From a virus: a DNA stretch of 44,399 nucleotides. The notes beneath the pieces are model-generated. The model was not told where the DNA came from, made no database searches, and saw only the letters and a program-made list of their open reading frames with translations. Each line of letters starts with the position of its first letter. The first letter of the stretch is position 1. Positions 1-44,399 of the stretch are shown here, one piece after another. A program made the translations under genes and the position numbers. The stretch is taken from positions 1-44,399 of IMG/VR virus record IMGVR_UViG_3300015190_000001; one strand, 5' to 3'.

Positions 1-127
1 GCTCCAGCAGGAAGGCTCGCGACTCTCCAGCGCCGTCACCGTAGGCTCCCACGTCGGCAAGGCCGCGTCCGTGGTCGAGCAGTTCGGTTCGGCCACCGCG
101 CAACTCAAGACCGGCCGGCACGCGGAC
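1..127. repeat. Terminal overlap copy 1 (identical to 44273-44399)
   Basis: Direct reading: gctccagcaggaaggctcgcgactctcc...ggccggcacgcggac occurs at both window ends. This is consistent with a circular assembly or terminal redundancy. Confidence 0.9.
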
Positions 128-5444: not shown

Positions 5445-5837
5445 ATGGCTTATCCGAAAATGTCTGACGCTGATCGCAAGCACTATCGCGCGGCAGCAGC
5501 GAAGCGGTGGCGAGATAAAAATCCAGAGCGTGTGAAAGAAATTGCGCGCAAGTACCGAGCCGTTCGTGGAAAGGAAATGTCGCGAGAGCGGTATCTAAGG
5601 ACCGCTTACGGATTGACGACGACGGCTTTTTCAGCGCTGCTCGTCGGGCAAGGCGATGCCTGTGCTATTTGCCGAACGGACTCGCCGAACAGCCACGGTT
5701 GGTGTGTCGATCACGATCACGCCACAGGCAAAGTGCGCGGCATCCTCTGTCATTCCTGCAACAGCGGCATTGGCGCGCTGCAGGACAGCGCGACAGTCAT
5801 CGAAGCCGCCCTTAGCTACTTGCGGAGGGCGCAGTGA
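5445..5837 (+). CDS. Recombination endonuclease VII family (HNH-like) nuclease
   Basis: Motif CAICRT..(X)..CVDHDHATGKVRGILCHSCNSGIG is the Endonuclease_7 signature. It sits as an insert between tail and internal-virion genes. Confidence 0.8.
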   Translation: MAYPKMSDADRKHYRAAAAKRWRDKNPERVKEIARKYRAVRGKEMSRERYLRTAYGLTTTAFSALLVGQGDACAICRTDSPNSHGWCVDHDHATGKVRGILCHSCNSGIGALQDSATVIEAALSYLRRAQ

Positions 5838-8305: not shown

Positions 8306-11300
8306 TGGCCGGCTTCCTCGCGCCCGAGAGTGATACCGTAACGCAGCCGACCGCTACAACTGCGTTTGGCGATCCGATCCTCGGTACGACTGTTCCCGGC
8401 GGCCACCAGGCGCGGGACTTCGGCGACGCGTTCATCGCCGGCCTCCAGGCGTCCTCGGGCGGCCTCGCCAAGCGCGGCAAGTTGCCGGACATGGAGCTTG
8501 GCCCGGACTCCCCCTGGTATCACCGGCTCGCTTCCGGGGTAGGCCAGCTTGTCGGCGACGTGCCGGCGATGGTCGCCGGGGGCGTTGCGGCGCAGGTTGT
8601 TACCGGCGGCAAAGGCGGCCCGATGGCCTCGGCGGTAGGCGCCTTCGCCGCCCCGATGGCGCTGCGCGAGGCGCTGATCGAGGCGTACACCCATAACTAC
8701 GCGACGACCTGGGAAGGCGTGCAGGAGGTGGGCTTCGCCGCGGCCAAGGGGGGCGCCAAGGGCGCTGTGCTCGGCGCGGTGACGATGGGCGCTGGGCGTG
8801 TCGTGGCGCCGATCCTCGCGCCCGCTGGCAGGGCAGCCGTGGTGGCAGGGACCACCGGGGCCGAGATCACCGCCCTCACGACGACCGGCGCGGCCCTCGA
8901 AGGGCACATGCCGGCCTGGCAGGACTTCATGGACAACGCGATCCTGCTGGGGGGCGTGAAGGCGTCCGCGCACGTCGCGCGCGGGATGTACCACATCTTC
9001 GCCGAGACGGGGCGCACGCCAGAGCAGATCGCCGCCGACGCTAAGGTCGACCCGGCACTTGCCGAGGCGCTGAAGAACCCGCCGAAGCCGGGCGAACTGC
9101 CCCAGCCCTACGGCCAGATCGCGCTCGAGCAGCGCATCGAGTCGGCGCTCGACAAGGACGCGCGCCCCGAAGTGCTCCGCAAGAACATGACCGACGAGCC
9201 GCGCGCCTTGGAGCTCGACAAGGCCGATCCGGTCAAGTACGAGTACATCGCCGACGGCGAGACGGCCAGGGGCGTGCTGCGCGAAGTCACCGGGCTGTAT
9301 CAGGCCGAGATCAACGCGCAGACCCGCGGCGTCGTGCCGAATGCGACGACCGCCGCCGAGGGCTTGAAGCAGGTATCGGACGGCTCCATCGCACCGCACG
9401 TCATTGGCGAGGCTGGAAACGCGGCCGAGATCTATGCTCGAGCGCACCTGCTGCGCGGCGCGACCGCTCACGCCGTCGGTGAGTTCAAGAAGCTCGCCGG
9501 TATCCCTGAGGCGGAACTTTCGCCGGCCGCAAAGCTCTCCGCGCTCGCCGCCCTGGAGCGCGTCGCCATGCTCAAGGCCGAAGTCGAGGGTGTCGGCGCG
9601 GAAGCCGGCCGCGCCCTTCAGATCTTCCGCGCCATCAAGCGCGACCCGTCTTTCCTGGGCGACGCTGAGGGGCTGCTCAAGCTCGCCGAGCGCAAAGGCA
9701 AGCTGCAAGACATCGCGAAGATGGTCGCGGACATGAAAGACCCGGCGCAGTTGGCCGAGTTCTCGCGCCAGTACAACAAGGCGACGACGATGGAGCAAGT
9801 GATCGAGGGCTGGCGCGCGGCCATCCTCTCTGGTCCGCAGACGCACATGGCGAACATCATGGGCAACTTGACGAAGATGTTCGTCGAGATCCCCGAGAGC
9901 GTCCTCTCCGCATCGCTCTACGCGCTCGACAAGGCCGCGCACGGCGACCCGCTCACGCTCTCGCAGTGGAAGGCCCGCGCCTTCGCGCCGTACTACGGGA
10001 TCAAGCTCGGCTCGAAAGAGGCGATATTCGCAGCCGCCGAGGTCTGGAAGATGAAGGGCGCGTCCGTCGAGAAGGCCGACGTGTTCCGCGAGGCGATCCC
10101 CGGCAAGGCTGGCGAAGTCATCCGGCTGCCGTTCAGGGCGCTCCAGGTCGAGGACGTGCTGTTCCGCACCCTGGCCGAGCGCGCCGAAGCCTACAAGCTC
10201 GCGGTGGACCGCGCGGTGAAGGAAGGGTTGCACCCCGAGACGGCAGAGGGCCGCGAGCGCGTGACGCTCTATACCGGGCGCCCGGACTTCGGACTGGAAG
10301 CGAAGGACGCCGCAGCCGCCATCAAGCGAATCCAAGACGTCGGAGCCGAGTCGGTCTTCTCGCAGCGCCTCGGACCGCGCATGGAGATCGCGCAGCGCGC
10401 AATGGCCGGCAGCGCCTTGAGCTTCATCGTTCCATTCGTGCGGACGCCAGCAAACCTCGTGTCGTGGGCTTTGCAGCACACGCCGGGGTTGAACCTCCTC
10501 TCCGGCCGCTGGCGAGAGGATTTTTCTGCTGGCGGAGAAGCGCGGGCTCGCGCGGTCGCGCGCGTCGCGATCGGCACCGGCCTCGCGGCCACCGCGTACA
10601 CGCTCGCCTCCGATGGCTCGCTCACCGGCGGCGGAATGTTCGACAAGGAGGAAAGGCGAACGAAGACCGCCGCTGGCTGGCAGCCATACAGCATCAAGAT
10701 CGGCGAGAAGTATTACAGCTACCAGCGGATCGAGCCGGTGGCGAAGGTGCTCGGCCTCGCCGCGGACCTCATCGAACTTGATCGGAACACGACGGACAAA
10801 GAGGACAAGGCGAAGATCGCGACGATGCTCGTCCTCATGTTCGGCAACGCGACCGTGAGCACGACGTATCTCTCGGGTTTGTCGAACGCCATCCAGGCGA
10901 TCACCGACCCGGGCCGCTACGGCGAGAACTTCCTCGAGCAGTACGCTTCCTCGCTAGTGCCGAAAGCGGTCGGTCAGGTCGTGACTGCCGCCGACCCGCA
11001 CAAGCGCGAAGTGAACGGCATCTTCGACGCGATCCAGAGTCAGCTGCCATTCCTGCGCGAGAAGCTGCTTCCCAAGCGCGACGTGTGGGGCGAGCCGCAA
11101 AAGAACGATCGCTGGTTCGCCGTCCTGCCGGTGGCGACGAGCGATGTGAGCCAGGAGAAGGTTCGCACCGAGGCCGCGCGCTTGCACCTCGCTATCGCGG
11201 ACGCGCCGCGCTTCGCGATGGAGCGCGCACCCTTCAGCGCGAAAGAGAAGCGCGTCGATTTGACCGAGCCGCAGCGCGACATCTTCCGCGAGGTGAGCGG

Positions 11301-11547
11301 CAAGAACGCGATGGAGATTCTGGCGCCGATCGTGAACTCGTCCGACTGGAGCCAGATCCCCGACTTCGCGAAGGCCGAGGTCTACAAGAAGGTGATCGAG
11401 GGTGCGCGCAAGCAGGGCATGTACTCGGCGCTGCCGCCCGATGATCCGTCGCGCGAGAAGCTGCGCGAGAAGCTGATTGAGAAGGTCATCAAGCAGACAC
11501 GCGACGCTGAGACGAACGTGCCGGCCCCCGAACGGAGAGTCAAGTGA
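8305..11547 (+). CDS. Large internal virion/DNA-ejection protein (gp16-position)
   Basis: 1080 aa, with Gly/Ala-rich hydrophobic N-terminal segments. GTG start overlaps the upstream TAG. No lytic transglycosylase motif was recognised. Confidence 0.55.
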   Translation: MAGFLAPESDTVTQPTATTAFGDPILGTTVPGGHQARDFGDAFIAGLQASSGGLAKRGKLPDMELGPDSPWYHRLASGVGQLVGDVPAMVAGGVAAQVVTGGKGGPMASAVGAFAAPMALREALIEAYTHNYATTWEGVQEVGFAAAKGGAKGAVLGAVTMGAGRVVAPILAPAGRAAVVAGTTGAEITALTTTGAALEGHMPAWQDFMDNAILLGGVKASAHVARGMYHIFAETGRTPEQIAADAKVDPALAEALKNPPKPGELPQPYGQIALEQRIESALDKDARPEVLRKNMTDEPRALELDKADPVKYEYIADGETARGVLREVTGLYQAEINAQTRGVVPNATTAAEGLKQVSDGSIAPHVIGEAGNAAEIYARAHLLRGATAHAVGEFKKLAGIPEAELSPAAKLSALAALERVAMLKAEVEGVGAEAGRALQIFRAIKRDPSFLGDAEGLLKLAERKGKLQDIAKMVADMKDPAQLAEFSRQYNKATTMEQVIEGWRAAILSGPQTHMANIMGNLTKMFVEIPESVLSASLYALDKAAHGDPLTLSQWKARAFAPYYGIKLGSKEAIFAAAEVWKMKGASVEKADVFREAIPGKAGEVIRLPFRALQVEDVLFRTLAERAEAYKLAVDRAVKEGLHPETAEGRERVTLYTGRPDFGLEAKDAAAAIKRIQDVGAESVFSQRLGPRMEIAQRAMAGSALSFIVPFVRTPANLVSWALQHTPGLNLLSGRWREDFSAGGEARARAVARVAIGTGLAATAYTLASDGSLTGGGMFDKEERRTKTAAGWQPYSIKIGEKYYSYQRIEPVAKVLGLAADLIELDRNTTDKEDKAKIATMLVLMFGNATVSTTYLSGLSNAIQAITDPGRYGENFLEQYASSLVPKAVGQVVTAADPHKREVNGIFDAIQSQLPFLREKLLPKRDVWGEPQKNDRWFAVLPVATSDVSQEKVRTEAARLHLAIADAPRFAMERAPFSAKEKRVDLTEPQRDIFREVSGKNAMEILAPIVNSSDWSQIPDFAKAEVYKKVIEGARKQGMYSALPPDDPSREKLREKLIEKVIKQTRDAETNVPAPERRVK

Positions 11548-11894
11548 TCCTTGAACTCGGTGACGGCCGCGAGATCCCACTGCCCGACAGCATGCCGGAC
11601 GAGACGGCGCGGCAACTGAAGCGTTTGATCCTCACCCTCGAGGAGCGCGCTCGCACCGCCGAGTCCGAGGTGCGCCTTCTGCGGGATGAGATGGCCGCTT
11701 TGCGCAGCCAGGTAGCGACGGTCGCCGTCAAGCAGAACGACCACGCGCCGCTCGTTGATGCAATCGGCCGTATGCACGCCGACATCAAGACCGGGCTTGA
11801 CTCGGTGCGCGCGGCGGCGAGCGCCGATCGCATGATGGTGCCCGATGAGTACGGCGAGATGACGCGATCAAAGGTAGTGAAAAATGTCGGTTAA
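11544..11894 (+). CDS. Hypothetical coiled-coil protein
   Basis: 116 aa, GTGA overlap with the upstream gene, heptad-like helical sequence. Confidence 0.5.
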   Translation: MILELGDGREIPLPDSMPDETARQLKRLILTLEERARTAESEVRLLRDEMAALRSQVATVAVKQNDHAPLVDAIGRMHADIKTGLDSVRAAASADRMMVPDEYGEMTRSKVVKNVG

Positions 11895-13374
11895 AACTGC
11901 TGGCGTAGGCCATTTCCAAATCCCGACCGCCCCGGCGGCGGGCACGTCCGTCACGAGCGGCGCGGCGAACGTCTATACAACGACCTATGTGCAGCTAATC
12001 GCGAGCACGGCTGCGGCGCTCTACATCACGGGCATTTATGTGGAAGAAGCCGCCGCGACGGCAGCGACCTATATCTCTGTGCAACTTGCTACCGGGGGCG
12101 CGGGCGCTGAGACAATCGTCGGGCAATACCTCGTTGCGCCGTCCACGGGCAGCACGGTGACGCGCACCTACCGTCCGATCTTCCCGCCGATCCCCGTTGC
12201 GGTCTCCACACGGATCGCCGCGAAGACAGCGGACAGCGTGGGGGCGGCGGCGAAACTTATTACGCTCGAATGTATCGCGCAGTCGAACGTCGTGGACTCC
12301 GGCATCGCGGTCGGGACGGTGACGACGGTGACGAACCAGCTCACCGCCGCCGCGATTGCGGCCGGCGTGTGGCAGGACGCTGTGGCTGGCGACTTCACCG
12401 TCGCGAGCAGCGTCGGCAAGGCGCTCTACATCTCGAACGTCGCCCCCGGAGCAGCGGGCGGTCACATGATTTCCGGCTCCAACGCCGGCACGACTACCCT
12501 CGGCGCGCTCACGGTTACAGGTGTCACGACGCACACCGGGAACGTGGTGCTGTCGGACGGCCTGACGATCTCGGCGCCGAGCACGCTCAACCGGGCGGGC
12601 TTCGACATCGCAGGGAACGGCACGGGCGCAGCGATCAAGGCCACGGGTGGCGCGACCGGCATCGGAGTGAACGTCATCGGCGGCGGCACATCTGGCGATG
12701 GCATCAAGGTCACGACTACCTCTGGACACGGCCTCAACCTCGCGCCGGTCGGGACGAACATGCACGGCCTGCTCTCGACCGGCGGCAACGGCGGGGTGAG
12801 CGACGGCGTGAAGGCAGCGGCGGGCACGGGCGGCGTTGACTTCCGCGCGAACCAGACCGGCAGCATCACCGGCAACCTGTCAGGCAGCGTCGGAAGCGTA
12901 ACTGGCGCAGTTGGCAGTGTGACCGGCGCGGTGGGCTCGGTAACTGGGGCGGTGGGTAGTGTGACGGGCGCAGTTGGCTCGGTCACCGGAGCAGTAGGCA
13001 GCGTCACCGGCAACGTCGGCGGGAACGTGGTCGGCTCGGTGGCGAGCGTCACGGCGCGGGTTTCTGCAAACGTCGATCAGGTCGATGGGGCTGCTCTCAC
13101 GGCGCACGCCGCTGGCAAGATTCCGGCGGACGTTCTCACGGTCGCGGGAATGCTGCAGACCGCCCGTGATCTCGGCGGGCAGCTTGACGCCGCAGTCAGC
13201 ACGCGCCTCGCCACCGCCGGCTACACCGCGCCGGACAACACGAGCATCACGGCGATCAAGGCGAAGACCGACAGCCTCACCTTCACCGTCGCGAACAAAC
13301 TCGACGTCAACCTGCTGGTTGTGAACGGCGTGACGCTTGTCGGTGACGGCAGCGCGACGCCGTTCAACGTATGA
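11884..13374 (+). CDS. Tail fibre protein with GSVTGAV heptapeptide repeats
   Basis: 496 aa, Gly/Ser/Thr/Val/Ala-rich. It carries five perfect GSVTGAV units plus variants and sits in the tail module. Confidence 0.7.
   Translation: MSVKTAGVGHFQIPTAPAAGTSVTSGAANVYTTTYVQLIASTAAALYITGIYVEEAAATAATYISVQLATGGAGAETIVGQYLVAPSTGSTVTRTYRPIFPPIPVAVSTRIAAKTADSVGAAAKLITLECIAQSNVVDSGIAVGTVTTVTNQLTAAAIAAGVWQDAVAGDFTVASSVGKALYISNVAPGAAGGHMISGSNAGTTTLGALTVTGVTTHTGNVVLSDGLTISAPSTLNRAGFDIAGNGTGAAIKATGGATGIGVNVIGGGTSGDGIKVTTTSGHGLNLAPVGTNMHGLLSTGGNGGVSDGVKAAAGTGGVDFRANQTGSITGNLSGSVGSVTGAVGSVTGAVGSVTGAVGSVTGAVGSVTGAVGSVTGNVGGNVVGSVASVTARVSANVDQVDGAALTAHAAGKIPADVLTVAGMLQTARDLGGQLDAAVSTRLATAGYTAPDNTSITAIKAKTDSLTFTVANKLDVNLLVVNGVTLVGDGSATPFNV
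12883..13017 (+). repeat. In-frame tandem 21-bp repeat (about 6.4 units) encoding GSV + (GSVTGAV)x5 + GSVTGNV
   Basis: Units start at 12892, 12913, 12934, 12955, 12976 and 12997. The amino-acid units are identical while most wobble positions differ (for example ggaagcgtaactggcgcagtt, ggcagtgtgaccggcgcggtg, ggctcggtaactggggcggtg). Confidence 0.9.
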
Positions 13375-19242: not shown

Positions 19243-19439
19243 TTGGGGAAGCCGCCGTTGGGCAGCGACCAGTCGACGATGAGAGGCGGATTTATCACGC
19301 GCTCGGCAAGGTGCCGTAGGTGTTCTCGCACGGCGGGGTGAGGATTCTTGTCGAAAGGAAGGAGCAACCGCCAATCGCGGCTGGCTGTCCTGCGCGCTCT
19401 GTGGAGAGAATACCAGCGTTCCCGCACTGTGGGTTCCAT
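19218..19439 (-). CDS. Hypothetical protein translationally coupled to the OMP moron
   Basis: ATG at 19439 overlaps the OMP TGA by 1 nt (TGATG). 73 aa, third-position GC about 68 percent. It is part of ORF-track entry 19218-19526. Confidence 0.4.
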   Translation of the reverse strand: MEPTVRERWYSLHRARRTASRDWRLLLPFDKNPHPAVREHLRHLAERVINPPLIVDWSLPNGGFPNQQRGRLP

Positions 19440-20008
19440 CAGAACCTGAACAGCGCCCCGACGGATAGGACCGTGATGTCGTCCTCGCCGGTGGCGGGGC
19501 CGCCGACCTCGTTGTACTTCTGCCATTCCGCGCGCACGGTGACGCGCTTCGTGATGTCGTAGCCGACGCCAAGGCCGTACACGAGCCCGGTATTCGTTTC
19601 TCTGTCGGTTCTGTTCACGGTCACCGTGTTGATCCTGACCTCCGTGCTGGCGCGGTAGGCGCCCAGGCGACCGTAGACCGAGAGCCGGTTAAGCGGCGAG
19701 TAAGAGCCGACGACGGACAGGTCGAAGGCGTTCGAGGACGCCGTGATCGAGCCGGCGGGGCCGGTGGCCTTCGCCTCACCGAGATCCGCGAAGGTGAGTT
19801 CGGCCGCGAAGTTTGGATGAAAGCGGTAGCCGCCGAAGACCTTCAGGGCGTCACTCTTGTCGTCGCAGGAGATGCCGGCGCCCGAGACGCCGTTGCACGT
19901 CGACTCCGCCTTGGACTGGCCGAGATGGGCCCCGGCGTAGAATGGCCGGTCTTGCGCGGCCGCCGCGGCCGAGAACACGGCGACCATCATTGCGAGCAGA
20001 ATCTTCAT
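19439..20008 (-). CDS. Outer-membrane beta-barrel protein (Ail/Lom/OmpX-OmpA-TM-like), moron
   Basis: Signal peptide MKILLAMMVAVFSAAAAAQD, alternating beta-strand pattern, and a C-terminal ..VGALFRF ending in Phe. Strong RBS AGGAGG. It is on the opposite strand to the late operon and next to attP. Confidence 0.75.
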   Translation of the reverse strand: MKILLAMMVAVFSAAAAAQDRPFYAGAHLGQSKAESTCNGVSGAGISCDDKSDALKVFGGYRFHPNFAAELTFADLGEAKATGPAGSITASSNAFDLSVVGSYSPLNRLSVYGRLGAYRASTEVRINTVTVNRTDRETNTGLVYGLGVGYDITKRVTVRAEWQKYNEVGGPATGEDDITVLSVGALFRF

Positions 20009-20237: not shown

Positions 20238-21206
20238 TTATGCCGCTTTCTTCTTCCTGAGTCGTCCCCGCCGCATCCCCGCGAGTTTCGGGAGGCTGTC
20301 CACCGCGGCGCGCAGGTCGCCCGGGAGCAGATGGGCATAGTGCTTCGCCGTGATGGCGATCGACGTGTGGCCGAGGAGGTCTTGCGCTGCCTTCAGGCTC
20401 TTCGTCCGCTGCACGACCCAGGAGCCGAACGTCCGCCTGAGGTCGCGGAACTGCAGCCAAGGCATCCCCGCCTTGCTACGGGCCTCCCTGTACGCCTCGC
20501 CGAGCTCTCGTCCTGTCAGGCCATAGGGGAAGTTTGCGGCGCTCAGGCCCCGCGGGAGAGGCACTACGCGCGGCTTTGAGGTCTTCCCCTTGGTGATGAC
20601 GATGGCCCCGTCTTTGAAGTCGTGCGGCTGCAGCCCTTGGAGCTCGCCCGAGCGGAGCCCGGTCATGGCAGCCCATAGGATCGCCTTGCGGGTACGGCCG
20701 CGAGCGGCGCCCAGCAGTTTGTCCGCCTGCGCCGGCGTGGCCTGGATGTACCGCGGCTCCTCCCCAGGCAGGAGGACTATCCGGCCGGCTTCGTCGTGCT
20801 CGAGCCAGCGCCATTTCCGGTGAGCGAGGCGGGCGACCCTTCGGAGGATGGCGAGGCGCCGGTTCACGGTGGCCGGCTTCAGCCCGGCGCCGGACTTGAT
20901 GACGGCTTCGGCAGCATCGGCGACCTGGTGGAGCATCCGGCCGCGGATCTGCGGGTAGATGGCCCTGACCTTGTTCTGCAGGTTGCGGTAGGACTTGAGG
21001 GACTTCGCCTCACCGCCTAGCCAGCGATCGATCGCTTCCTCGAGCGTGTAGGTCGGTAGTCGGCCAACGCGGCTATCTTCGATCCTCTGTGCAGTGCGGC
21101 GCTCAAATTCGGCAGCGTCCCTACGGCTTCGGAAAGAACGGCTAAGGCGTCTGCCGCCAAGTTGGATTCGGACTTCCCAGGTCGGTCCATGCCTGCGGAT
21201 CGGCAT
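20238..21206 (-). CDS. int: Tyrosine integrase
   Basis: 322 aa. Catalytic-box pattern: ..TGLRSGEL.. (R), ..FRDLRRTFGS.., ..LLGHTSIAITAKHYAHL (H, Y). Adjacent to the tRNA fragment. Confidence 0.9.
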   Translation of the reverse strand: MPIRRHGPTWEVRIQLGGRRLSRSFRSRRDAAEFERRTAQRIEDSRVGRLPTYTLEEAIDRWLGGEAKSLKSYRNLQNKVRAIYPQIRGRMLHQVADAAEAVIKSGAGLKPATVNRRLAILRRVARLAHRKWRWLEHDEAGRIVLLPGEEPRYIQATPAQADKLLGAARGRTRKAILWAAMTGLRSGELQGLQPHDFKDGAIVITKGKTSKPRVVPLPRGLSAANFPYGLTGRELGEAYREARSKAGMPWLQFRDLRRTFGSWVVQRTKSLKAAQDLLGHTSIAITAKHYAHLLPGDLRAAVDSLPKLAGMRRGRLRKKKAA

Positions 21207-37120: not shown

Positions 37121-38704
37121 ATGGGGATGCTGGGGAGTCCTGATCAGGAGGCGGAGATCATGGCGCAGGTGTTGTCCTTCCGGTCGGACCCGGTTGGGTT
37201 TGTGCTGTGGTCGTATCCGTGGGGGAAGGAGGGCTCGCCGCTGGCCGGGGTGAAGGGGCCGCGGGATTGGCAGTTGGAGGAGCTCGAGGCGATTGGGGAG
37301 CATGTGCGCAGGCAGGAGGCGGCGTGCGCGGGCGGGTTGCCGACGGAGATCTGGCGCTCTGAGTATTCGAGTGGTCGTGGCCCTGGGAAGTCGGCGCTGT
37401 TCGGGATGGCGGCGCACTGGCACTTCAGCACGCACATTGGGTCGACGACGCAGGTTTCGGCCAACACGGAGACGCAGCTTCGGACGAAGACGTTCCCGGA
37501 GTTTGCGAACTGGTTCGGGTGCGCGGTCAATAGGCACTGGTTCACGATCGAGGCGTTGGCGATCCAGCCGGCGCCGTGGCTGTACGAGTTGATCGGGAAG
37601 CTCGAGCAGGAAGGCGGGTTGGGTTTTGTCCCTGAGAAGTGGTTCGTTCGTGGGCAGAACTGGACCGAGGACAACCCGAGCGCTTACGCGGGGGAGCACA
37701 ACCAGCGCGGGCTGATGCTGCTCTTCGACGAGGCGGCGGGGATTCACGCGGAGGTATGGAACACATCCGAGGGGTTCTTCACCGAGGTTAACCCTTATCG
37801 CTTCTGGATGGCGGCGAGCCAGATGCGCAACCGCTCAGGGCGTTTCTACGACATCGGCCACGACAAGCAGCTTGGCGAGGGCTGGCGCTTTCGGACGATC
37901 TCGACGCGCGGAATGGCTGGTGTCGACCAGGCGTTGATCGAGTCGCAGATCAAGCGCTACGGGCCTGACTCCGATTTCGTGCGGGTCGAGATTGACGGCC
38001 TTGCGCCGAGGACGAGCGAGGACCAGTTCATTCCCTGGGACACGGTGCGTGCCGGGCAGCAGAACGAGCTCGCGCGGGACTACGGCGAGCCGCTGATTCT
38101 TGGCGTGGATCCAGCCCCTAGAGGGAAGACGTCGTGGCGGTTCAGGCAGGGCAGGAACGCGCGCGACTGCGTGGGAGCCGCAACGTTCGGCGCGTGGTAC
38201 GCCCTGGACAACGTGCAGATCGCCGAGAAGATTCTTGAGTTCGATGCGAAGTTCAGGCCCGACTACATCTGCATCGACTTCGGTATGGGCACCGGGGTCA
38301 TCGACATCCTGAAGCGAAAGCGCACGAACGGCCGGTTGCTCGAGGTGCGCTTCGGAGATCAGGCACACGACAAGCACGGCGAGTTCGCCACGCATGCGGC
38401 GGAACTGTGGGCGCGGGTTCGTGCCTGGCTGCCAGGCGCGATGGTCGAAAAGGACGACGGCTCCAAAGGAACTCTTTCGCATCAACTGACCGACCGCGGC
38501 TGGCGCTACTCGCAGCGCGAGGACGGGAAGAAGATCCTCGAGACGAAAGACGACATGGCGCGCCGCGGCGTTTCATCGCCCGATGACGCGGATGCGCTCG
38601 CTTGCACGCACGAGTTGGTTAACCCTCCGCGCATCGATCGGCCGGTGCGCTCGGGCATGCAGAAGATCGCCGAAGGGGTTGGGCAAAGCCCCTTCTTTGA
38701 TTGA
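37121..38704 (+). CDS. terL: Terminase large subunit
   Basis: 527 aa. Walker A-like SGRGPGKSALFG and Walker B-like MLLFDEAAG, with a C-terminal nuclease-type region. RBS GAAGGTGG. Confidence 0.85.
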   Translation: MGMLGSPDQEAEIMAQVLSFRSDPVGFVLWSYPWGKEGSPLAGVKGPRDWQLEELEAIGEHVRRQEAACAGGLPTEIWRSEYSSGRGPGKSALFGMAAHWHFSTHIGSTTQVSANTETQLRTKTFPEFANWFGCAVNRHWFTIEALAIQPAPWLYELIGKLEQEGGLGFVPEKWFVRGQNWTEDNPSAYAGEHNQRGLMLLFDEAAGIHAEVWNTSEGFFTEVNPYRFWMAASQMRNRSGRFYDIGHDKQLGEGWRFRTISTRGMAGVDQALIESQIKRYGPDSDFVRVEIDGLAPRTSEDQFIPWDTVRAGQQNELARDYGEPLILGVDPAPRGKTSWRFRQGRNARDCVGAATFGAWYALDNVQIAEKILEFDAKFRPDYICIDFGMGTGVIDILKRKRTNGRLLEVRFGDQAHDKHGEFATHAAELWARVRAWLPGAMVEKDDGSKGTLSHQLTDRGWRYSQREDGKKILETKDDMARRGVSSPDDADALACTHELVNPPRIDRPVRSGMQKIAEGVGQSPFFD

Positions 38705-38953: not shown

Positions 38954-39186
38954 AGCTCGGACGGCAAGGCGACGCGAAGGTGGACCCGGCGCCAGGTGCG
39001 CTCAAGCCGCGGCAGCGTTTGCCGGCGGCAATCAAGGCGAAGGTGCATCGGTTCATGGCGCGCGACAAGCATCAGTTGCCGCGAAGCGTGCAGCCGTTGA
39101 ATCCAGGGTTCGCTCTCCTCGAGCGCATGCGCGCGGAGAAAACAACAAAGGTGCGCGGTGAACGCGCGAAAGTGAGGGGGAAATGA
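38950..39186 (+). CDS. Hypothetical basic protein
   Basis: 78 aa, GTGA overlap with the upstream gene. Confidence 0.4.
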   Translation: MKLGRQGDAKVDPAPGALKPRQRLPAAIKAKVHRFMARDKHQLPRSVQPLNPGFALLERMRAEKTTKVRGERAKVRGK

Positions 39187-39509
39187 GCACTTCGGACAAA
39201 GACAACTTCAAGACAAGTTCCGCGCTTAATCGGACTGCCGCCTTTTTTGGCGACGATCGCGCCGACACGTCGGACCAGACGAAAGCAAAGGAAGACGCCG
39301 CCAGGCGAGCGGCTGCCGATGCGGCGGCCAAAGCGGCGGCAGCCGGCAGGGTGCCTGACCCGATGCAGTTCGAGACGCGCCGGCAGGACTATAGCAACGT
39401 GGCAGCCGCGGCGGGCGCACAGCGCACCGGTAGCGACGCCGACCTCCTGGGCTTCGTAGGATCGCGGGCGCGTCGCGCCGGCGCCGCTCGCCGCATCCTG
39501 GGCGACTAA
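39183..39509 (+). CDS. Hypothetical Ala-rich protein
   Basis: 108 aa, ATGA overlap with the upstream gene. Confidence 0.45.
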   Translation: MSTSDKDNFKTSSALNRTAAFFGDDRADTSDQTKAKEDAARRAAADAAAKAAAAGRVPDPMQFETRRQDYSNVAAAAGAQRTGSDADLLGFVGSRARRAGAARRILGD

Positions 39510-41147
39510 GTGAGCGATCTCACGCAGTTCCACATCCAGCGTCTCGGGACGCTTCGTACCGACCGCGCGAACTGGAACTCCCAATGGGAGGAGGCGGCCG
39601 ACCGGGTGATCCCGGCGCACCGTTATTCCTTCACCGGCCCGCTCGCGCAGCGCCAGGAGGGTCAGAAGAAGACCGAGCTCCAGTTCGACTCGACGGCCGC
39701 GCTCGCCGCGCAGAAGTTCATGTCCGTGATCGAGTCGATCGCAACACCGCAAGGCTCGGTGTGGGCGCAGTTGAAGCCCCTCGACGCGGTGCTCCGTCGA
39801 AACCGCGCTGTCCGCATGTTCTTCGATCAACTCGCCGAGACGCTGCACAACTATCGCTACCACCCGGTCGCGAACTTCGTCGGCAACAGCCAGCAGACCT
39901 ACCTCTCGCTCGGGGTGTACGGCAACGGCATCCTGTTCATCGACAAGCCTGAGAAGACGCACGGCCTGCGCTACCGGAACATCCACCTTGGCGAAGCGTA
40001 TTTCGTCGAGAACCACGCGAACATCGTCGACACGCTCTATCGCGTGTTCCCGATGACAGCGCGCCAGATCGTCGACAAGTACAGCGAGCGCGGCGACACC
40101 GTGCCCGAGGCCGTTCAGGAGATGGCGAAGAACGCGCAGCAGATGGACAAGAAGCACGACGTCCTGCACTGCGTCTATCCGCGCGCGGACTACGACCCGC
40201 GGCGCATGGACCCGAAGGGTAAAAAGTTTGCCTCGGTTCACATTTTCATCGAGTCGCAGGATCTCCTGCGCGAGTCTGGCTACGACGGCTTCCCCTACGC
40301 GGTGACGCGCTACACCCAGGCGAGCGGTGAAGTGTACGGCCGCGGCCCGGCGCAGTTCGTGCTGCCGGCGATCAAGGTGCTGAACGAGCAGAAGAAGACG
40401 GCGCTGAAGCAGGGCCATCGCATCGTCGACCCGGTGCTGCTTGCGCACGATGACGGCAACCTCGGCAGCTTCAGCCTGAAGGCCGGGTCGTTGAATGCCG
40501 GCGGCATCAGCAAGGACGGCAAGAAGCTGATCGACGTCCTGCCGACCGGCAATCTTGCCGTGAACGACAAGATGATGGACATGGAGAAGACGGTCATCAA
40601 CGACGCCTTCCTCATCAGCTTGTTCCAGATCCTCGTCGACACCCCGACGATGACGGCGACGGAGGTGCTCGAGCGCGCCAAGGAAAAAGGCATGCTGCTC
40701 GCGCCAACCTCCGGGCGCATGTCCTCGGAGTTCCTTGGGCCGATGATCGAGCGCGAGATCAGTCTTCTCGCCGCGCAGGGCCGACTGCCGAAGATGCCGC
40801 AGATTTTGATCGACGCTGCGATCGAGTATCGCATCGTGTACGACAACCCGCTCTCTCGGATGGCGCGCTCCGAGAAAGCGGCAGGTTTCATGCGTGCACT
40901 GTCAGTGGCCGCCGAGTATTCAAAAATGACGGGCGACGTCGAGCCGTTGGACTGGTTCGATTTCGATGAGGCCATGCCGGAAATTCTGGACATCCAAGGA
41001 GCTCCGACCTCGTGGACGCGCACCCTCGAGGATGTCCAGGCTCGTCGCGGCTCCCGCTCTCAAACCGCACAGACGCAGCAGATGGTCGAAGCGGCGCCAG
41101 CAATGGCCGCCGTTGCCAAGTCAATGCCGAAAGGTGCTCCCGCCTGA
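39510..41147 (+). CDS. Portal (head-to-tail connector, T7 gp8-like)
   Basis: 545 aa with the size and N-terminal pattern of podovirus connector proteins. It lies between terL and the scaffold gene. Confidence 0.75.
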   Translation: MSDLTQFHIQRLGTLRTDRANWNSQWEEAADRVIPAHRYSFTGPLAQRQEGQKKTELQFDSTAALAAQKFMSVIESIATPQGSVWAQLKPLDAVLRRNRAVRMFFDQLAETLHNYRYHPVANFVGNSQQTYLSLGVYGNGILFIDKPEKTHGLRYRNIHLGEAYFVENHANIVDTLYRVFPMTARQIVDKYSERGDTVPEAVQEMAKNAQQMDKKHDVLHCVYPRADYDPRRMDPKGKKFASVHIFIESQDLLRESGYDGFPYAVTRYTQASGEVYGRGPAQFVLPAIKVLNEQKKTALKQGHRIVDPVLLAHDDGNLGSFSLKAGSLNAGGISKDGKKLIDVLPTGNLAVNDKMMDMEKTVINDAFLISLFQILVDTPTMTATEVLERAKEKGMLLAPTSGRMSSEFLGPMIEREISLLAAQGRLPKMPQILIDAAIEYRIVYDNPLSRMARSEKAAGFMRALSVAAEYSKMTGDVEPLDWFDFDEAMPEILDIQGAPTSWTRTLEDVQARRGSRSQTAQTQQMVEAAPAMAAVAKSMPKGAPA

Positions 41148-41680
41148 AACTAAACATTGGTTGTGGCGGGCGCAAGCTCGACGGCTGGATCAACGTAGAC
41201 GCGCAGGCGATGGAAGACCCGGACGTGGTTGCCGATCTGACAGCACCCTGGCCGTGGCCGAATGACTCGGTTGACGAAGTGGAGGCTTCGCACGTCATGG
41301 AGCACATCGCCCCAGGCGAGCCGTTCTTCCACTTCATGCGCGAGCTCTATCGCGTGTGTAAGTCCGGGGCGAAGGTGAACGTGACGCTGCCGCATCCGTC
41401 ACATGACATCTTTCTTAATGATCCGACGCACATGCAGGCGATCATGCCAGGCACGCTGGCGATGTTCTCGAAGCGATATGTTGAAGCGCTGGCGGCGAAA
41501 GGCGACAAGCTCACGCCGTTCTACAAATACCTCGGGGTGGACTTCGACATCAAGACGGTGCGCTATACGTTCGACCCGTCGATCGACAAGAACGATCCCG
41601 AGATCGAGTGGAAGGCGAAGCATCTGCGTAACGTGGTCTTTCAATGGAGCACGACCTTGACGGTCGTGAAGCCAGCCTGA
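41144..41680 (+). CDS. Class I SAM-dependent methyltransferase (Methyltransf_11/23-like); probable non-canonical CTG start
   Basis: (L)KLNIGCGGRKLDGWINVD....VVADL...WPWPNDSVDEVEASHVMEHI......FMRELYRVCKSGAKVNVTLPH. The only canonical upstream start (GTG 41012) adds 44 Arg/Ser/Gly-rich residues inside the portal gene. CTG 41144 overlaps the portal TGA and has AAGGTG 7 nt upstream. Confidence 0.7.
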   Translation: MKLNIGCGGRKLDGWINVDAQAMEDPDVVADLTAPWPWPNDSVDEVEASHVMEHIAPGEPFFHFMRELYRVCKSGAKVNVTLPHPSHDIFLNDPTHMQAIMPGTLAMFSKRYVEALAAKGDKLTPFYKYLGVDFDIKTVRYTFDPSIDKNDPEIEWKAKHLRNVVFQWSTTLTVVKPA

Positions 41681-41937
41681 ACGAACTATTCGAGAAAGCG
41701 CGCCGGTTTCTGCAACGACGCCGCTACGCATATCAGCAGACGTTCAAGGGACCGCTCGCGGAGATCGTGCTGCGCGACCTCGCGCAGTTCGGCATGGCCG
41801 GCGAGTCGACCTTCCACGACAACGAGCGTGTGCAGTCGAAGCTCGATGGCCGGCGCGAGATGTGGCTGCGTATTGCGCACCACTTGAAGCTGACCGACGA
41901 CCAGCTTTGGGCGCTCTACGACGGAAGGGACGTCTGA
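41644..41937 (+). CDS. Conserved hypothetical protein
   Basis: 97 aa. ..LFEKARRFLQRRRYAYQQTF....VLRDLAQF.........DGRREMWLRIAHHLKLTDDQLW is a pattern recalled from other podophage/prophage head modules. Confidence 0.5.
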   Translation: MEHDLDGREASLNELFEKARRFLQRRRYAYQQTFKGPLAEIVLRDLAQFGMAGESTFHDNERVQSKLDGRREMWLRIAHHLKLTDDQLWALYDGRDV

Positions 41938-42950
41938 TGTACCGCGAGGGACAAGTCGTAACGACCGACGTCCACAATTTCGTGATGAACAACGCCGCGC
42001 TCGGCGACATGATCTCGTCCTTGCCCGCGGTCGTCTTCGCGCGCAAGTTCTATCCCACCGAGCCGATCATGCGCGTGTGGGTGCCACCGTGGCACATCGC
42101 GCTCGTCGAGCACCTTCTGGCTCCATACGGCGCCTTCCAGGTTCGCGATCTGCTGAAGTTTCCGCAGAAGCAATCGGAGCGCGAAGGCTGGCGCGGCCCT
42201 GACGGCGAGGACAAGGACCAGGCGATGTCCTACAACGGACTCGTGTACGACCAGCACACGCGCTGCCGCGTTCACATGGTCGACTACGCCTTCGGCACCC
42301 TCATCAATGCGCGCCCCGAGACGATGGAGGAGCGCTGCTACCCGACGAAGGCGTCGCTCGGCCCGCGGGTGATCGAGGAGGAGTACGTCGTTTTCCCCGT
42401 CGGAGCGACGAGCGACAACAAGCTCTTTCGCGCTTCCGTCATGGGACCGATCATGCGCTGGTGCCAGTCGCACGGCTACAGCGTCGTCATCACCGGCACG
42501 AAGACGAGCCACACGCAGACCAAAGTGGACGGCGCGCTGAAGGCGATCGTGATGCGCGAGCAGACCGACATGCTGCCGGCGGACGTCTTCACGTCCGTCA
42601 AGGACTGGCGCGAGAAGACGACGCTCCTCGAGTTGCGCGATCTTCTCGGGCACGCTGCCGCGGTAGTTGGTGTCGACGGCGGCACGCTGCACCTGGCCGG
42701 GACGACGGACGTGCCGATCGTCTTCGCGAGCGGCACGACGCTGCCCAAGCACCGCTACATCCCGCGCCACGGCAGCCACGAGTTCCGCGCCCGCTACGTC
42801 GGGCCGCGCAACCTTGAGTGCGCTGGCTGCCAGTCGAACTGGCCGATGACGACCCTGCATTTTACGAAGTGCGTGTACGGCGACAACGCGTGCATGGAGC
42901 TTCTGCACCCCGACGATTTCACAAACGGTCTGAGAGAACTCGGACTGTAA
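41937..42950 (+). CDS. Glycosyltransferase family 9 (heptosyltransferase)-like protein with C-terminal four-Cys cluster
   Basis: 337 aa from ATG 41937 (TGATG overlap). The N-terminus has ..LGDMISSLPAVVFARKFYP.. The C-terminus has ..TTLLELRDLLGHAAAVVGVDGGTLHLAGTTDVPIVFASGTT.., the GT9 nucleotide-sugar-binding signature. It ends with ECAGCQ....(X)..KCVYGDNAC. Confidence 0.65.
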   Translation: MYREGQVVTTDVHNFVMNNAALGDMISSLPAVVFARKFYPTEPIMRVWVPPWHIALVEHLLAPYGAFQVRDLLKFPQKQSEREGWRGPDGEDKDQAMSYNGLVYDQHTRCRVHMVDYAFGTLINARPETMEERCYPTKASLGPRVIEEEYVVFPVGATSDNKLFRASVMGPIMRWCQSHGYSVVITGTKTSHTQTKVDGALKAIVMREQTDMLPADVFTSVKDWREKTTLLELRDLLGHAAAVVGVDGGTLHLAGTTDVPIVFASGTTLPKHRYIPRHGSHEFRARYVGPRNLECAGCQSNWPMTTLHFTKCVYGDNACMELLHPDDFTNGLRELGL

Positions 42951-42975
42951 CTACGGCCCCTTGAAAGGATAAGCC

Positions 42976-43830
42976 ATGACGACTGCTGCACCAGCACCCG
43001 CCGCTCCAGCCGCAACCCCTGCCGCGCCCGCTGCCGCACCGGCCGCTGCTCCGGCGGCGAACGCCCCCTGGCACGGCTTCACCGAGCCTGCCGACGTGCA
43101 GTACATCGAGAACAAGGGTTGGAAGGCACCAACAGACGTCATCAACGGCTACCGCGGCGCCGAGAAGCTGATCGGCCGCGACCCGTCGACCCTGCTCGTC
43201 ATGCCGCGCGCCGACGATCCGGCTGGCTTCCTGCAAGTGATGGACAAGCTCGGGCGCCCGGCGTCGCCTGACAAGTACGAGTTCGCGAAGCCAGATAGCG
43301 GCATGGCGCTCGATGATGGCTACGTGAATTGGGCGCGCGGCACCTTCCACGAGCTCGGCCTGCCGGCGCAGACCGTGAAGGCGCTCACCGGCAAGCACAA
43401 TGAGTACATCAAGGGCGTGATGGCGAAGCAGGAAGCTGACTACAGGCTCTCCGTCGACACCGACAAGAAAGCGCTTCTCGGCGAATGGCGTGACGGCCAC
43501 GAGCGCAAGATGAACGCGGCCTCCGCTGCGGCGAAGGGACTCGGCTTCACGCCCGAGATGATCGACTCGATCGAGCGCACGGTCGGCTACGCCGGCACCT
43601 GGAAGTTCTTCGCGGATCTCGGCACGCGCATGGGCGAGGACAACTTCGTCGCCGCCGGCGACAAGACCCGCAGCTTCGGCGGCGTCACGCCGGAAGAAGC
43701 GAAGAAGCAATGGGATGCGATGAAGATCGACCCGGTGGCGACGGCCGCGCTGAAGGACACGCAGCACCCGGGCCATGAGGCGGCGAAGAAGAAACAGTCC
43801 GATCTGTTCAAGATCATGTATCCGGCGTGA
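42976..43830 (+). CDS. Scaffolding protein
   Basis: 284 aa with an Ala/Pro-rich N-terminus and a helical, charged body. It lies immediately upstream of the capsid gene. Confidence 0.65.
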   Translation: MTTAAPAPAAPAATPAAPAAAPAAAPAANAPWHGFTEPADVQYIENKGWKAPTDVINGYRGAEKLIGRDPSTLLVMPRADDPAGFLQVMDKLGRPASPDKYEFAKPDSGMALDDGYVNWARGTFHELGLPAQTVKALTGKHNEYIKGVMAKQEADYRLSVDTDKKALLGEWRDGHERKMNAASAAAKGLGFTPEMIDSIERTVGYAGTWKFFADLGTRMGEDNFVAAGDKTRSFGGVTPEEAKKQWDAMKIDPVATAALKDTQHPGHEAAKKKQSDLFKIMYPA

Positions 43831-44018
43831 GGCCGACCGCCGCGGTGACGCAGAAGGAGCCTCTCGATGCGGTGCAGGTTCGCCTGCGCTGCGTCGAGGC
43901 GGTGGCGTGGTCCGGTGTTTCCGGCGCGCACAAGGACGGCCACGTCGCGGGGATTCTTGATGCGGCGCAAAAACTTGCTGACTGGGTGCTTGAAGGGAAG
44001 AAGAAACAGGAGCGGTAG
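43827..44018 (+). CDS. Hypothetical small protein
   Basis: 63 aa, overlapping stop/start with the scaffold gene. Confidence 0.4.
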   Translation: MRPTAAVTQKEPLDAVQVRLRCVEAVAWSGVSGAHKDGHVAGILDAAQKLADWVLEGKKKQER

Positions 44019-44020
44019 CG

Positions 44021-44066
44021 CCTAGCTATTAGGAAGCACCTAGCGATAGGAAAAGTGTGGTATACT
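44021..44066 (+). promoter_or_regulatory. Possible internal promoter before the capsid gene: two CCTAGC-N-TAGG mini-palindromes plus an extended -10 (TGgTATACT)
   Basis: cctagctattagg (44021-33), cctagcgatagg (44039-50), and TG at 44058-59 followed by TATACT at 44061-66. No good -35. Confidence 0.35.
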
Positions 44067-44153
44067 AGAAGTTGTGGTAGGCACGACGGACAAGGCTGCA
44101 TCTAGCCCCCGTCAAGTAGCAGCCGACCGCAAGCGGCCCCCGAAAGGGATAAG

Positions 44154-44190
44154 CCAGGCGGCACCAGCCGATCGGTGCAACTGGGTTTTT
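44154..44190 (+). other. Structured element in the capsid leader (interrupted hairpin followed by GTTTTT)
   Basis: ccag-gcg-gcacc-agccgatc-ggtgc-aa-ctgg then gttttt, located 24 nt before the capsid ATG. Confidence 0.4.
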
Positions 44191-44213
44191 CCTGACAATT
44201 TTCGGAGGCTGAA

Positions 44214-44399
44214 ATGCCCGCCGCAATCACCACCGCATCAGTACAACAGTACAAGGCGAACGTCGAGCTCCTGCTCCAGCAGGAAGGCTCGCGACTCTCC
44301 AGCGCCGTCACCGTAGGCTCCCACGTCGGCAAGGCCGCGTCCGTGGTCGAGCAGTTCGGTTCGGCCACCGCGCAACTCAAGACCGGCCGGCACGCGGAC
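44214..44399 (+). CDS. Major capsid protein, N-terminal part (continues at window position 2)
   Basis: ATG 44214 follows RBS GGAGG (44204-08). MPAAITTASVQQYKANVELLLQQEGSRLSS... continues in frame into the overlap. Confidence 0.8.
   Translation, partial: MPAAITTASVQQYKANVELLLQQEGSRLSSAVTVGSHVGKAASVVEQFGSATAQLKTGRHAD
44273..44399. repeat. Terminal overlap copy 2 (identical to 1-127)
   Basis: Direct comparison of the two window ends. Confidence 0.9.

Follow-up and report, generated by a model that had tools for sequence, protein, structure and literature searches.

We identified, between the portal and scaffold genes of a temperate podophage, a cassette built around a glycosyltransferase (GT9) with a C-terminal four-cysteine (Cys4) finger. 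Profile matches, the predicted fold and residue conservation make a solid case that GT9 is a GT-B enzyme of the heptosyltransferase superfamily with its catalytic residues intact. Our best guess for the cassette as a whole, at a probability of roughly 0.4, is that it is a late-expressed glycan-decoration module that would bring about late glycosylation of a phage protein. The window (the entire 44,399-nucleotide stretch that was analysed) is a complete genome of 44,272 bp, circular by a 127-nt overlap between the contig ends, and the phage is known only from metagenome data, with no isolate. Its one clear conversion-type gene, an OmpA-like barrel, adjoins the integrase on the opposite strand.

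The head operon runs on the + strand from the portal gene (39510-41147), a T7 gp8-type head-tail connector (PF12236, E 2.5e-96; phrog_332, E 3e-124), through a methyltransferase gene (MT, 41144-41680), a gene for a Bbp19-like small helical protein (41644-41937; PF25181 Phage_Bbp19, E 1.9e-10; phrog_4437) and GT9 (41937-42950, 337 aa) to a scaffold-like gene (42976-43830; phrog_3742, E 1.7e-34) that is syntenic in all loci, and on to the major capsid protein (MCP) gene, whose start at 44214-44399 runs on at window positions 1-826 of the circular contig and whose homologues carry PF19821 Phage_capsid_2. With PF12236 as the upstream and phrog_3742 as the downstream anchor, the portal-scaffold interval holds three ORFs, all co-oriented, just where the original prediction had placed its cassette. 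The stop/start coupling to the head genes that it described can be read directly from the sequence and recurs in relatives: the portal stop overlaps a CTG codon in CTGA at 41144-41147, and the Bbp19 stop overlaps the GT9 ATG in TGATG at 41935-41939. The latter overlap is 1 nt in four of four distinct gene-called locus types, and by this evidence GT9 is translationally coupled to the upstream Bbp19-like gene. A scan of the + strand from 39500 to 43000 found neither promoter-like nor terminator-like sites. A synteny survey of related phages, suggested at the outset, recovered the order portal-[MT]-Bbp19-GT9-scaffold-MCP in ~70 loci.

The predicted GT9 assignment and GT-B fold both held up. The protein clears the gathering cutoff of PF01075 Glyco_transf_9 (36.4 bits, cutoff 22, E 4.5e-9) in a match limited to the C-lobe (residues 146-268), within which the C-terminal signature peptide LLELRDLLGHAAAVVGVDGGTLHLAGTTDVPIVFASG occupies residues 230-266. 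An AF2 model (pLDDT 87.6, pTM 0.89) has the two Rossmann lobes of a GT-B enzyme, with the first Rossmann strand beginning at residue 12, and a Foldseek search with this model returned TibC (E 4e-13, TMq 0.63-0.66), then WaaF (1psw, 7e-11) and WaaC (2h1h, 1.5e-9); TibC is also the best match in a sequence search of solved structures (E 0.0014). There are 328 close homologues, and dN/dS for GT9 is 0.16-0.25. Residues D24, T158, K162, D247 and H252 and the four cysteines are invariant in 39 close homologues (alignment A2), as are the G-D motif, D-x-G and the four cysteines in 44 diverse family members (alignment A5). Asp24 (codon 42006-42008, + strand), which lies in the N-terminal G-D motif and is the predicted catalytic base, aligns with Asp13 of WaaC and with the TLGD motif of the bacterial autotransporter heptosyltransferases (BAHT; TibC Asp-110); TibC Thr-226 and Lys-230 align with the donor-binding T158 and K162, and TibC Arg-286, an adenine contact, falls one residue from the invariant R234.

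By alignment, an invariant C-x2-C...C-x6-C finger defines the family and appears to occupy the place of the BAHT iron finger (TibC, Aah). Of 149 new distant representatives checked, nearly all that are full-length keep this predicted metal-binding knuckle (C295-x2-C298-x13-C312-x6-C319; 42819-42893, + strand), and in hhalign the GT9 family matches a BAHT at 92% probability (E 6.5e-7) with the CxxC motifs co-located within 3 residues. AF2 confidence over the finger region is 61-77, and the x2/x13/x6 spacing differs from the x2/x15/x11 of the BAHT finger (Cys-339/342/358/370 in TibC), which is a feature of BAHT and not of LPS heptosyltransferases (PMC4358343). GT9 further resembles BAHT in its GT-B catalytic core, in the conserved catalytic Asp and phosphate-binding Thr and Lys, in the apparent insertion of the finger at an equivalent C-lobe place within a similar H-D-F...C context, in a predicted beta-hairpin (residues 194-203) that sits where the TibC 'thumb' lies, and in being a cytoplasmic, soluble-type enzyme.

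The TibC/Aah relationship that had been proposed nevertheless stands only in part: TibC is the closest solved structure, but GT9 is not itself a BAHT, scoring 28.7 bits on TIGR04414, where the cutoff is 200 and a genuine Pantoea BAHT reaches 587, lacking the N-terminal beta-barrel and carrying D-x-G-x-x-H in place of P-S-G-L-S-W. In alignment A3 BAHT has ~85 N-terminal residues more than GT9 (the TibC barrel is residues 1-97), and Trp-305, a sugar contact in TibC, is replaced by the invariant His252 of a WaaC-like motif. GT9 is, moreover, phage-borne, with no autotransporter found in the phage genome. A dodecameric ring is a further BAHT trait. With WaaC and WaaF it shares the Pfam GT9 family, the N-terminal G-D catalytic motif, the donor motif D-x-G-x-x-H-L-A and a similar length (~320-350 aa); it differs in the Cys4 finger and hairpin insertion, in an N-lobe that is not basic (pI 6.2 vs 10.0 in WaaC and 9.4 in WaaF) and in lying in a phage head operon, not a waa cluster. 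Equivalog status as LPS heptosyltransferase I, II or III was rejected (37.3 vs 185.3 bits for TIGR02193, 25.3 vs 134.6 for TIGR02195 and 19.6 vs 170.2 for TIGR02201). In profile comparison the Cys4-finger family is about equidistant from BAHT (E 6.5e-7) and WaaF (E 4.8e-6), and its N-lobe pI ranges from 5.5 to 9.7.

Profile searches also upheld the methyltransferase assignment (Methyltransf_11, 21.9 bits, cutoff 21.2, E 2.8e-4; phrog_6636 'methyltransferase', E 9e-12), and an intact N-terminal glycine-rich motif I (LNIGCGG) places MT among class I SAM-dependent, Methyltransf_11-like enzymes. On comparative evidence, MT (178 codons) probably starts at the CTG that overlaps the portal stop. Of 16 distinct MT loci, 5 share the CTGA overlap, and one of these (L010) allows no other start, since a TAA closes the frame eight codons upstream and neither ATG, GTG nor TTG lies between. 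The codon right after the CTG also opens the conserved motif I (KLNxGCG). In homologues of 176-180 aa the start codon directly precedes KLNxGCG, and the JGI gene call P0121 (156 aa, ATG at 41210) would drop the motif. A family-specific motif, PHPxHD...DPTH, is invariant, dN/dS is 0.12-0.24, and the best PDB relative, 3dli, has an unknown substrate. MT is an accessory partner of the glycosyltransferase, present in ~41% of GT9 loci (ahead of Bbp19 in 26 of 63) and in L081 placed after GT9. A functional link between the two is plausible, since MT is found on either side of GT9 and distant family members pair with non-orthologous methyltransferases, TylF-type O-methyltransferases and pyruvyl transferases.

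The cassette had been described as a single 1.8-kb insertion, which holds for MT and GT9 and fails for the ORF between them. The Bbp19-like gene is, on comparative evidence, an ancestral resident of the portal-scaffold interval and not part of the insertion, because more distant relatives without GT9 or MT retain portal-Bbp19-scaffold-capsid; GT9-less relatives L001, L002, L082, L083 and L087 likewise keep Bbp19 between portal and scaffold (alignment A4). Read this way, MT and GT9 are separate insertions on either side of a resident gene, with GT9 fixed directly 3' of it. The notion of GT9 as a sporadic moron does not fit its distribution: all sampled relatives (~70 loci) whose portals are at least 57% identical carry it. 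In a portal-anchored sample it is present in 9 of 9 loci at 62% identity or more and missing from 5 of 5 whose portal identity is 48% or below and whose sequence continues beyond the portal gene (L082, L083, L085-L087; L084 ends at the portal and is outside this count). GT9 identity does not track that of portal or MCP; L031 and L032 show 87% identity in the portal and ~90% in MCP but only 61% in GT9, which suggests either module exchange or faster, host-facing evolution.

The Cys4-finger GT9 family, as delimited by sequence, is large and previously undescribed, comprising at least 890 clusters at 50% identity, so far seen only on phage-sized contigs (<100 kb); no member was found in 50,697 GenBank phage records. 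Distant members are coupled to a non-orthologous Methyltransf_11 protein, a TylF-type O-methyltransferase, a polysaccharide pyruvyl transferase (once fused) or a hexapeptide acyltransferase. Distant members also lie amid early or DNA-metabolism genes, which means that the family overall has no fixed tie to virion genes. The phage of one such member also encodes PagL, an LPS-modifying lipid A deacylase, and the neighbourhood of the distant member in L102 includes a CTP_transf_like gene, a DNA ligase gene and a weak match to UDG.

If the cassette is a glycan-decoration module, GT9 would, judging from gene order only, be a late cytoplasmic product made alongside the head proteins; its donor would most likely be a nucleotide sugar of the host, on family analogy ADP-heptose, and it would O-glycosylate a phage-encoded late protein that ends in the virion. 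MT would be made at a low level by termination-reinitiation where its start overlaps the portal stop, and its role would be to methylate the sugar once GT9 has transferred it, and the finger, by analogy with TibC, may bind metal in the service of oligomerisation and/or acceptor recognition. Virion decoration is favoured by the coupling to the head operon, the lack of an internal promoter-like or terminator-like site, the sugar-tailoring partners and a mycobacteriophage precedent. Against it stand the WaaC-type D-x-G-x-x-H, the missing BAHT barrel, the near-equal profile distances to BAHT and WaaF, the early-gene settings of distant members, the varied N-lobe pI of the family and the substrate that had been proposed, a Gly/Ser/Thr fibre (11884-13374), which the closest GT9-positive relative lacks at the syntenic site and which is thus not a conserved partner. 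Virion glycosylation by a cassette of this gene content is already on record: according to PMC11600133, which cites Freeman 2023, an O-methyltransferase gene with three tandem glycosyltransferase genes downstream in cluster O mycobacteriophages modify capsid and tail tube proteins. As described in PMC11600133, PMC12619734 and PMC11256854, through which we cite Freeman et al. 2023, the cassettes of clusters O and F resemble ours in joining phage glycosyltransferase and O-methyltransferase genes whose products modify capsid and tail-tube proteins; the likeness is one of gene content, the hosts are Actinobacteria, and the function is experimentally demonstrated there and inferred here.

It is unlikely that the cassette instead remodels a host envelope glycoconjugate late in infection (the inner or outer LPS core, or some other glycan with heptose), as the second hypothesis of the original prediction had it, with the glycosyltransferase adding a sugar, MT capping it, and the changed receptor sparing progeny from debris or blocking superinfection. 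The WaaC-type sugar motif would suit such a role, as would the best NCBIfam match (LPS heptosyltransferase I, E 1.8e-9, though far below cutoff), an hhalign match of the family to WaaF that spans 234 columns with the N-lobe included, the PagL gene in the phage of a distant family member, and the temperate lifestyle. However, GT9 is embedded and translationally coupled in the head operon with no promoter-like site found; on that account it would go unexpressed in lysogens and would act for no more than the last minutes ahead of lysis. Core transferases of the cytoplasm change newly made LPS only. The Cys4 finger is a BAHT trait (PMC4358343), and the conversion-type outer-membrane-protein gene is next to the integrase rather than the cassette. 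The acceptor (N) lobe, acidic to neutral where those of WaaC and WaaF are strongly basic, also speaks, weakly, against an LPS-like role.

The slot directly after the portal often encodes capsid-targeted accessory proteins. GT9 could accordingly be cargo or an accessory protein apart from virion decoration, packaged via the portal into the next host, for example, or acting on a small molecule or a cytoplasmic protein of the host, with operon position reflecting packaging or timing and not substrate. The place of the gene in the portal-scaffold interval, the divergence of GT9 in L031 and L032 and the early-gene setting of family members in other phages are all compatible with this, yet we found no targeting signal and no homology to known ejection proteins in GT9, and the recurrent sugar-tailoring partners point to a built-up glycan, not a single regulatory modification; we regard it as improbable. 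Least credible is glycosylation of a modified base in phage DNA: phage GT-B enzymes, with a cytidylyltransferase, do decorate 5hmC with mono- and di-heptose (Pyle et al., bioRxiv 10.1101/2023.12.21.572611), and the neighbours of the L102 member would fit, but a 5hmC pathway is required and the window ORFs scanned include N6-adenine methyltransferases (Dam, MT-A70) and no cytosine-5 methyltransferase, TET/5mYOX enzyme or hydroxymethylase, MT falls outside DNA methyltransferase families, the Foldseek matches favour TibC, WaaF and WaaC over T4 beta-glucosyltransferase, and a head-operon site is atypical for replication-coupled modification.

Returning to decoration of a phage protein, we put forward, tentatively, a more specific proposal: Cys4-finger GT9 enzymes may be a phage-specific sister family of the autotransporter O-heptosyltransferases, O-glycosylating phage structural proteins with a sugar that partner enzymes then methylate or pyruvylate. 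If true, no virion glycosylation system would have been described before this one for phages that infect Gram-negative bacteria. With at least 890 clusters at 50% identity it would also be widespread, and would have escaped notice so far because no cultured phage carries one.

The GT9 glycosyltransferase gene (41937-42950, 337 aa) sits in the packaging/head operon of a complete circular phage assembly, as judged by an exact 127-nt terminal overlap (1-127 is identical to 44273-44399). The unique genome length is 44,272 bp, and the major capsid protein (MCP) gene spans the circular junction, starting at 44214, continuing at 1 and ending at 826. The operon, on the plus strand, begins with an Sf6-like TerS gene followed by TerL (37121-38704), two small ORFs, the portal gene (39510-41147; PF12236, E 2.5e-96), a class I SAM methyltransferase gene (MT, 41144-41680), a Bbp19-like gene (41644-41937; PF25181, E 1.9e-10), GT9 (PF01075, E 4.5e-9), a scaffold-like gene (42976-43830), a small ORF and the capsid gene. 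The original prediction described MT, the middle ORF and GT9 as a cassette between portal and scaffold that is coupled to the head genes; its coordinates, the peptide it quoted, the four cysteines and both overlapping junctions all match the sequence. The stop/start overlaps, CTGA at 41144-41147 and TGATG at 41935-41939, uphold that coupling. A scan of the plus strand found no promoter-like or terminator-like site inside the cassette, and GC content across it is unremarkable.

The phage is temperate, a lifestyle supported by a tyrosine integrase gene (20238-21206, minus strand), and it also encodes an HTH repressor-like gene. Two N6-adenine DNA methyltransferases are encoded apart from each other on the minus strand of its early region, one Dam-like (PF05869, 21836-22453) and one MT-A70 (PF05063, 24683-25297). 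Adjoining the integrase is a gene for an OmpA-like, 8-stranded outer-membrane beta-barrel (19439-20008, minus strand; PF01389, E 7.5e-27) that looks like a classic lysogenic-conversion moron and, in its placement, is unlike the GT9 cassette. An endonuclease VII gene (5445-5837; phrog_2914, E 1.3e-30) separates a tail gene from the genes for the internal virion proteins; since the same position is empty in the closest relative, locus L093, this is probably a mobile nuclease.

The cassette had been read as a three-gene insert, and this does not hold for its middle gene. We compared the seven head-module proteins of the window by tblastn with 72 related loci, gathered from IMG/VR and GTDB by looking up exact proteins and scanning for patterns. 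The order portal-(MT)-Bbp19-GT9-scaffold-MCP was constant across these loci, at identities to the window proteins of 45-83% for GT9, 57-87% for portal and 61-90% for MCP. A second sample was anchored on portal and hence unbiased for GT9; here GT9 was present in 9/9 loci with portal identity of at least 62% and missing from 5/5 loci at or below 48% that extend past portal (another, L084, ends at portal and is uninformative). GT9 and MT are both missing from Caudoviricetes MW202898, Ralstonia phage DU_RP_II and Burkholderia phage BcepC6B. The first two have the order portal-Bbp19-scaffold-MCP; in BcepC6B portal is followed by a gene annotated as similar to BPP-1 Bbp20, and no Bbp19 match came up there with tblastn. 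Since relatives without GT9 and MT keep the Bbp19-like gene between portal and scaffold, it is a native resident of the head module. On this comparison of gene order, GT9 was inserted and then fixed in a single clade. MT is an accessory gene; 26 of the 63 informative loci have it between portal and Bbp19, and the divergent locus L081 has it 3' of GT9.

Bbp19 stop and GT9 start overlap by 1 nt in all gene-called loci, and dN/dS values of 0.12-0.25 (approximate NG86) indicate purifying selection on each of GT9, MT and Bbp19. GT9 and MT have nonetheless diverged out of step with the structural genes on either side: in L031/L032 portal is 87% and MCP ~90% identical, yet GT9 only 61%, while elsewhere (the L008/L012 comparison) portal is at 71-74% and GT9 at 78-83%. 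This mismatch between GT9 identity and portal or MCP identity suggests exchange or recombination within the module, or faster evolution. For the Bbp19-like protein itself, a PDB profile search gave chance matches only, and a single-sequence model (pLDDT 55) was unusable.

The JGI gene call for MT (P0121, 156 aa) begins at ATG 41210, a start with which the protein would lose SAM-binding motif I; homologues are 176-180 aa long, with the N-terminus one codon ahead of K-L-N-x-G-C-G. Across 16 distinct loci, the codon before motif I is ATG or TTG in some, and in others ATA with TTG or GTG preceding. Five phage loci (the window at 41144-41147, L008, L010, L031 and L062) have CTG at the MT start, each time as CTGA overlapping the portal stop TGA. 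In L010 the CTG must initiate MT, because the frame is closed by a TAA eight codons upstream and offers no canonical start in between, and in the window a good Shine-Dalgarno sequence (AAGGTG) lies 7-8 nt upstream of it. MT would then be translated by termination-reinitiation coupled to portal, probably at a low level. It is this recurrent overlap that leads automatic callers to truncate MT. A portal-MT fusion by -1 frameshift is unlikely, there being no slippery heptamer before the stop and, in locus L059, a separate ATG for MT after the portal stop.

The best solved relative of MT is 3dli, an uncharacterised structural-genomics methyltransferase (E 2.2e-5), and the surroundings of cellular MT homologues showed no consistent gene context. 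One such homologue (46% identity; bacterial contigs L088/L089/L090 of up to 131 kb, ~7001-11954) adjoins a Methyltransf_23 gene, a gene for an 860-aa TPR and GT9-domain protein, and a type IV pilin gene; this cluster may be a pilin glycosylation locus. The GT9 domain of the TPR protein shows no specific relationship to the enzyme of the phage (hhalign probability 2%).

AlphaFold2 (39-sequence alignment) gave a confident two-lobe GT-B model of GT9 (pLDDT 87.6, pTM 0.89). In a Foldseek search of the PDB it ranked first with the autotransporter O-heptosyltransferase TibC (E 4e-13, TMq 0.63-0.66), followed by the lipopolysaccharide (LPS) core heptosyltransferases WaaF (E 7e-11, TMq 0.57) and WaaC (E 1.5e-9, TMq 0.57). 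TibC was also the sole significant PDB match by sequence (E 0.0014); a PDB profile search with the close-family alignment, too narrow a profile, returned only WaaC at E 0.4. In TibC, Asp-110 is the catalytic base, and Thr-226 and Lys-230 contact the beta-phosphate (PMC4358343). These align with D24, T158 and K162 of GT9, and Arg-286 falls next to R234 in the alignment; in place of Trp-305 GT9 has H252, part of the WaaC/WaaF-type motif V-D-G-G-T-L-H-L-A. D24, T158, K162, R234 and H252 are invariant in the close family, as are C295, C298, C312 and C319. Aligned by hhalign with a genuine bacterial autotransporter heptosyltransferase (BAHT) from a Pantoea plasmid, a sequence that came from a non-significant tblastn match (E = 4) against plasmids, the family scored 92% probability (E 6.5e-7), with CxxC motifs no more than 3 residues apart. 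The finger is spaced x2/x13/x6, against x2/x15/x11 in TibC and the Pantoea protein; at the place of the TibC 'thumb' insertion the model has a predicted beta-hairpin (194-203). The predicted GT9, TibC-like enzyme with a Cys finger is borne out.

The enzyme is not, however, a BAHT, as had been implied. It lacks the N-terminal beta-barrel and reaches 28.7 bits with the BAHT equivalog TIGR04414, whose cutoff is 200. By hhalign the family is about equally near to WaaF (E 4.8e-6) and BAHT, and GT9 falls under every equivalog cutoff for LPS heptosyltransferases. What kind of enzyme it is, and that its gene was fixed in the head operon during evolution, we regard as established. It departs in a well-delimited way from the known enzymes of its kind, and its genomic setting is both conserved and unusual.

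When 1.84 billion cluster representatives were searched exhaustively with HMMER, the matching proteins numbered 890 at E ≤ 1e-3, 380 at E ≤ 1e-10 and 79 at E ≤ 1e-30. Nearly all full-length distant members of this Cys4-GT9 family keep C-x2-C-Q-[ST]...H-D-F-[RK]-x-C-x-Y-x-D-x2-C, and among 44 diverse members (~25-45% identity) only the G-D motif, two Gly, one Thr, the donor-site Asp and the four Cys are invariant. The best 120 relatives of the broader alignment are all on contigs of at most ~95 kb and are named only by automatic 'ADP-heptose:LPS heptosyltransferase' labels. Scanning GTDB species genomes yielded five short MAG contigs and no isolate, and the family has no PHROG match. Among 50,697 GenBank phage records, tblastn with GT9 and two distant members found no true member, only host WaaF contamination, and megablast of 39000-44399 against GenBank phages gave no match. 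GT9 folds in phages are not unprecedented as such, since BFVD holds other, distantly similar phage GT9-like models; a literature search found no paper describing this cassette.

Distant members recur beside sugar-tailoring genes. L097, of the same head lineage, has a 418-aa member and a non-orthologous Methyltransf_11 between its TerS/integrase genes and TerL. The glycosyltransferase P0405 is stop/start-coupled with a TylF-type O-methyltransferase; in L101 a polysaccharide pyruvyl transferase directly follows the glycosyltransferase, and in L096 it is followed by TylF, Methyltransf_23, a hexapeptide acyltransferase, a pyruvyl transferase and Methyltransf_11. In L098 (L098/L099, 8001-9917) Cys4-GT9 and polysaccharide pyruvyl transferase domains are fused in a 638-aa protein, which adjoins a GT2 protein and a PKD-domain protein. 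The early region of an 88-kb phage contig (L102, 3682-17368) carries a distant Cys4-GT9, a 73-aa ORF, a pyruvyl transferase and Methyltransf_11, together with genes for a CTP_transf_like nucleotidyltransferase, DNA ligase, a weak UDG match and the lipid A deacylase PagL. Such recurrent partners argue that the family installs a sugar that is later methylated, pyruvylated or acylated, and the pairing supports a shared pathway for MT and GT9 in the window.

The original observation is thus confirmed and its interpretation partly supported. We tentatively favour, at a probability of roughly 40%, O-glycosylation by GT9 of a late phage protein in the cytoplasm, most likely a virion component. The gene sits among the head genes and is translationally coupled to them, the conversion-type OmpA-like gene adjoins the integrase away from GT9, and the nearest characterised relative modifies a protein and has a four-Cys finger at the corresponding place. 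A weak argument is the pI of the acceptor lobe (6.2, against 9.4-10.0 in WaaC/WaaF); this charge discriminates poorly, as N-lobe pI ranges from 5.5 to 9.7 across the family. Mycobacteriophages set a precedent: their capsid and tail-tube proteins are modified by cassettes that combine an O-methyltransferase gene with glycosyltransferase genes (PMC11600133, PMC12619734).

A fibre encoded at 11884-13374 had been put forward as substrate. We reject it as a conserved, dedicated partner, since the syntenic site in L093 is without it: there the fibre and its upstream small ORF are both missing and the internal virion protein gene is directly followed by a spike homologue. The fibre-like protein (region 11544-13374) has six or more tandem GSVTGAV heptads and no PHROG match. 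The missing fibre, the donor motif of LPS-enzyme type and the distant members among early genes all count against a virion-protein acceptor. Late remodelling of host LPS would agree with the family name of GT9, but the gene would be off in lysogens and on only shortly before lysis, and we consider this unlikely. Somewhat less probable still is that GT9 is cargo, or acts on a host protein or small molecule. Glycosylation of DNA has a heptose precedent (bioRxiv 10.1101/2023.12.21.572611) but is very improbable here, no hydroxymethylated-base pathway being found among the window ORFs scanned.

Whatever the target, these results define a large family, seen on phage-sized contigs, with a conserved predicted metal finger and recurrent sugar-tailoring partners, and with neither a cultured representative nor a specific annotation. 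For BAHT, these are the first clear relatives not tied to autotransporter loci, a point relevant to the origin of the iron finger. If the virion is the target, glycosylation of the phage particle would extend from mycobacteriophages to phages of Gram-negative hosts, with a chemistry that also differs, namely a GT9/BAHT-like enzyme, probably transferring heptose, and methyl or pyruvyl tailoring; this would be relevant to phage stability, immune or receptor recognition, and phage engineering.
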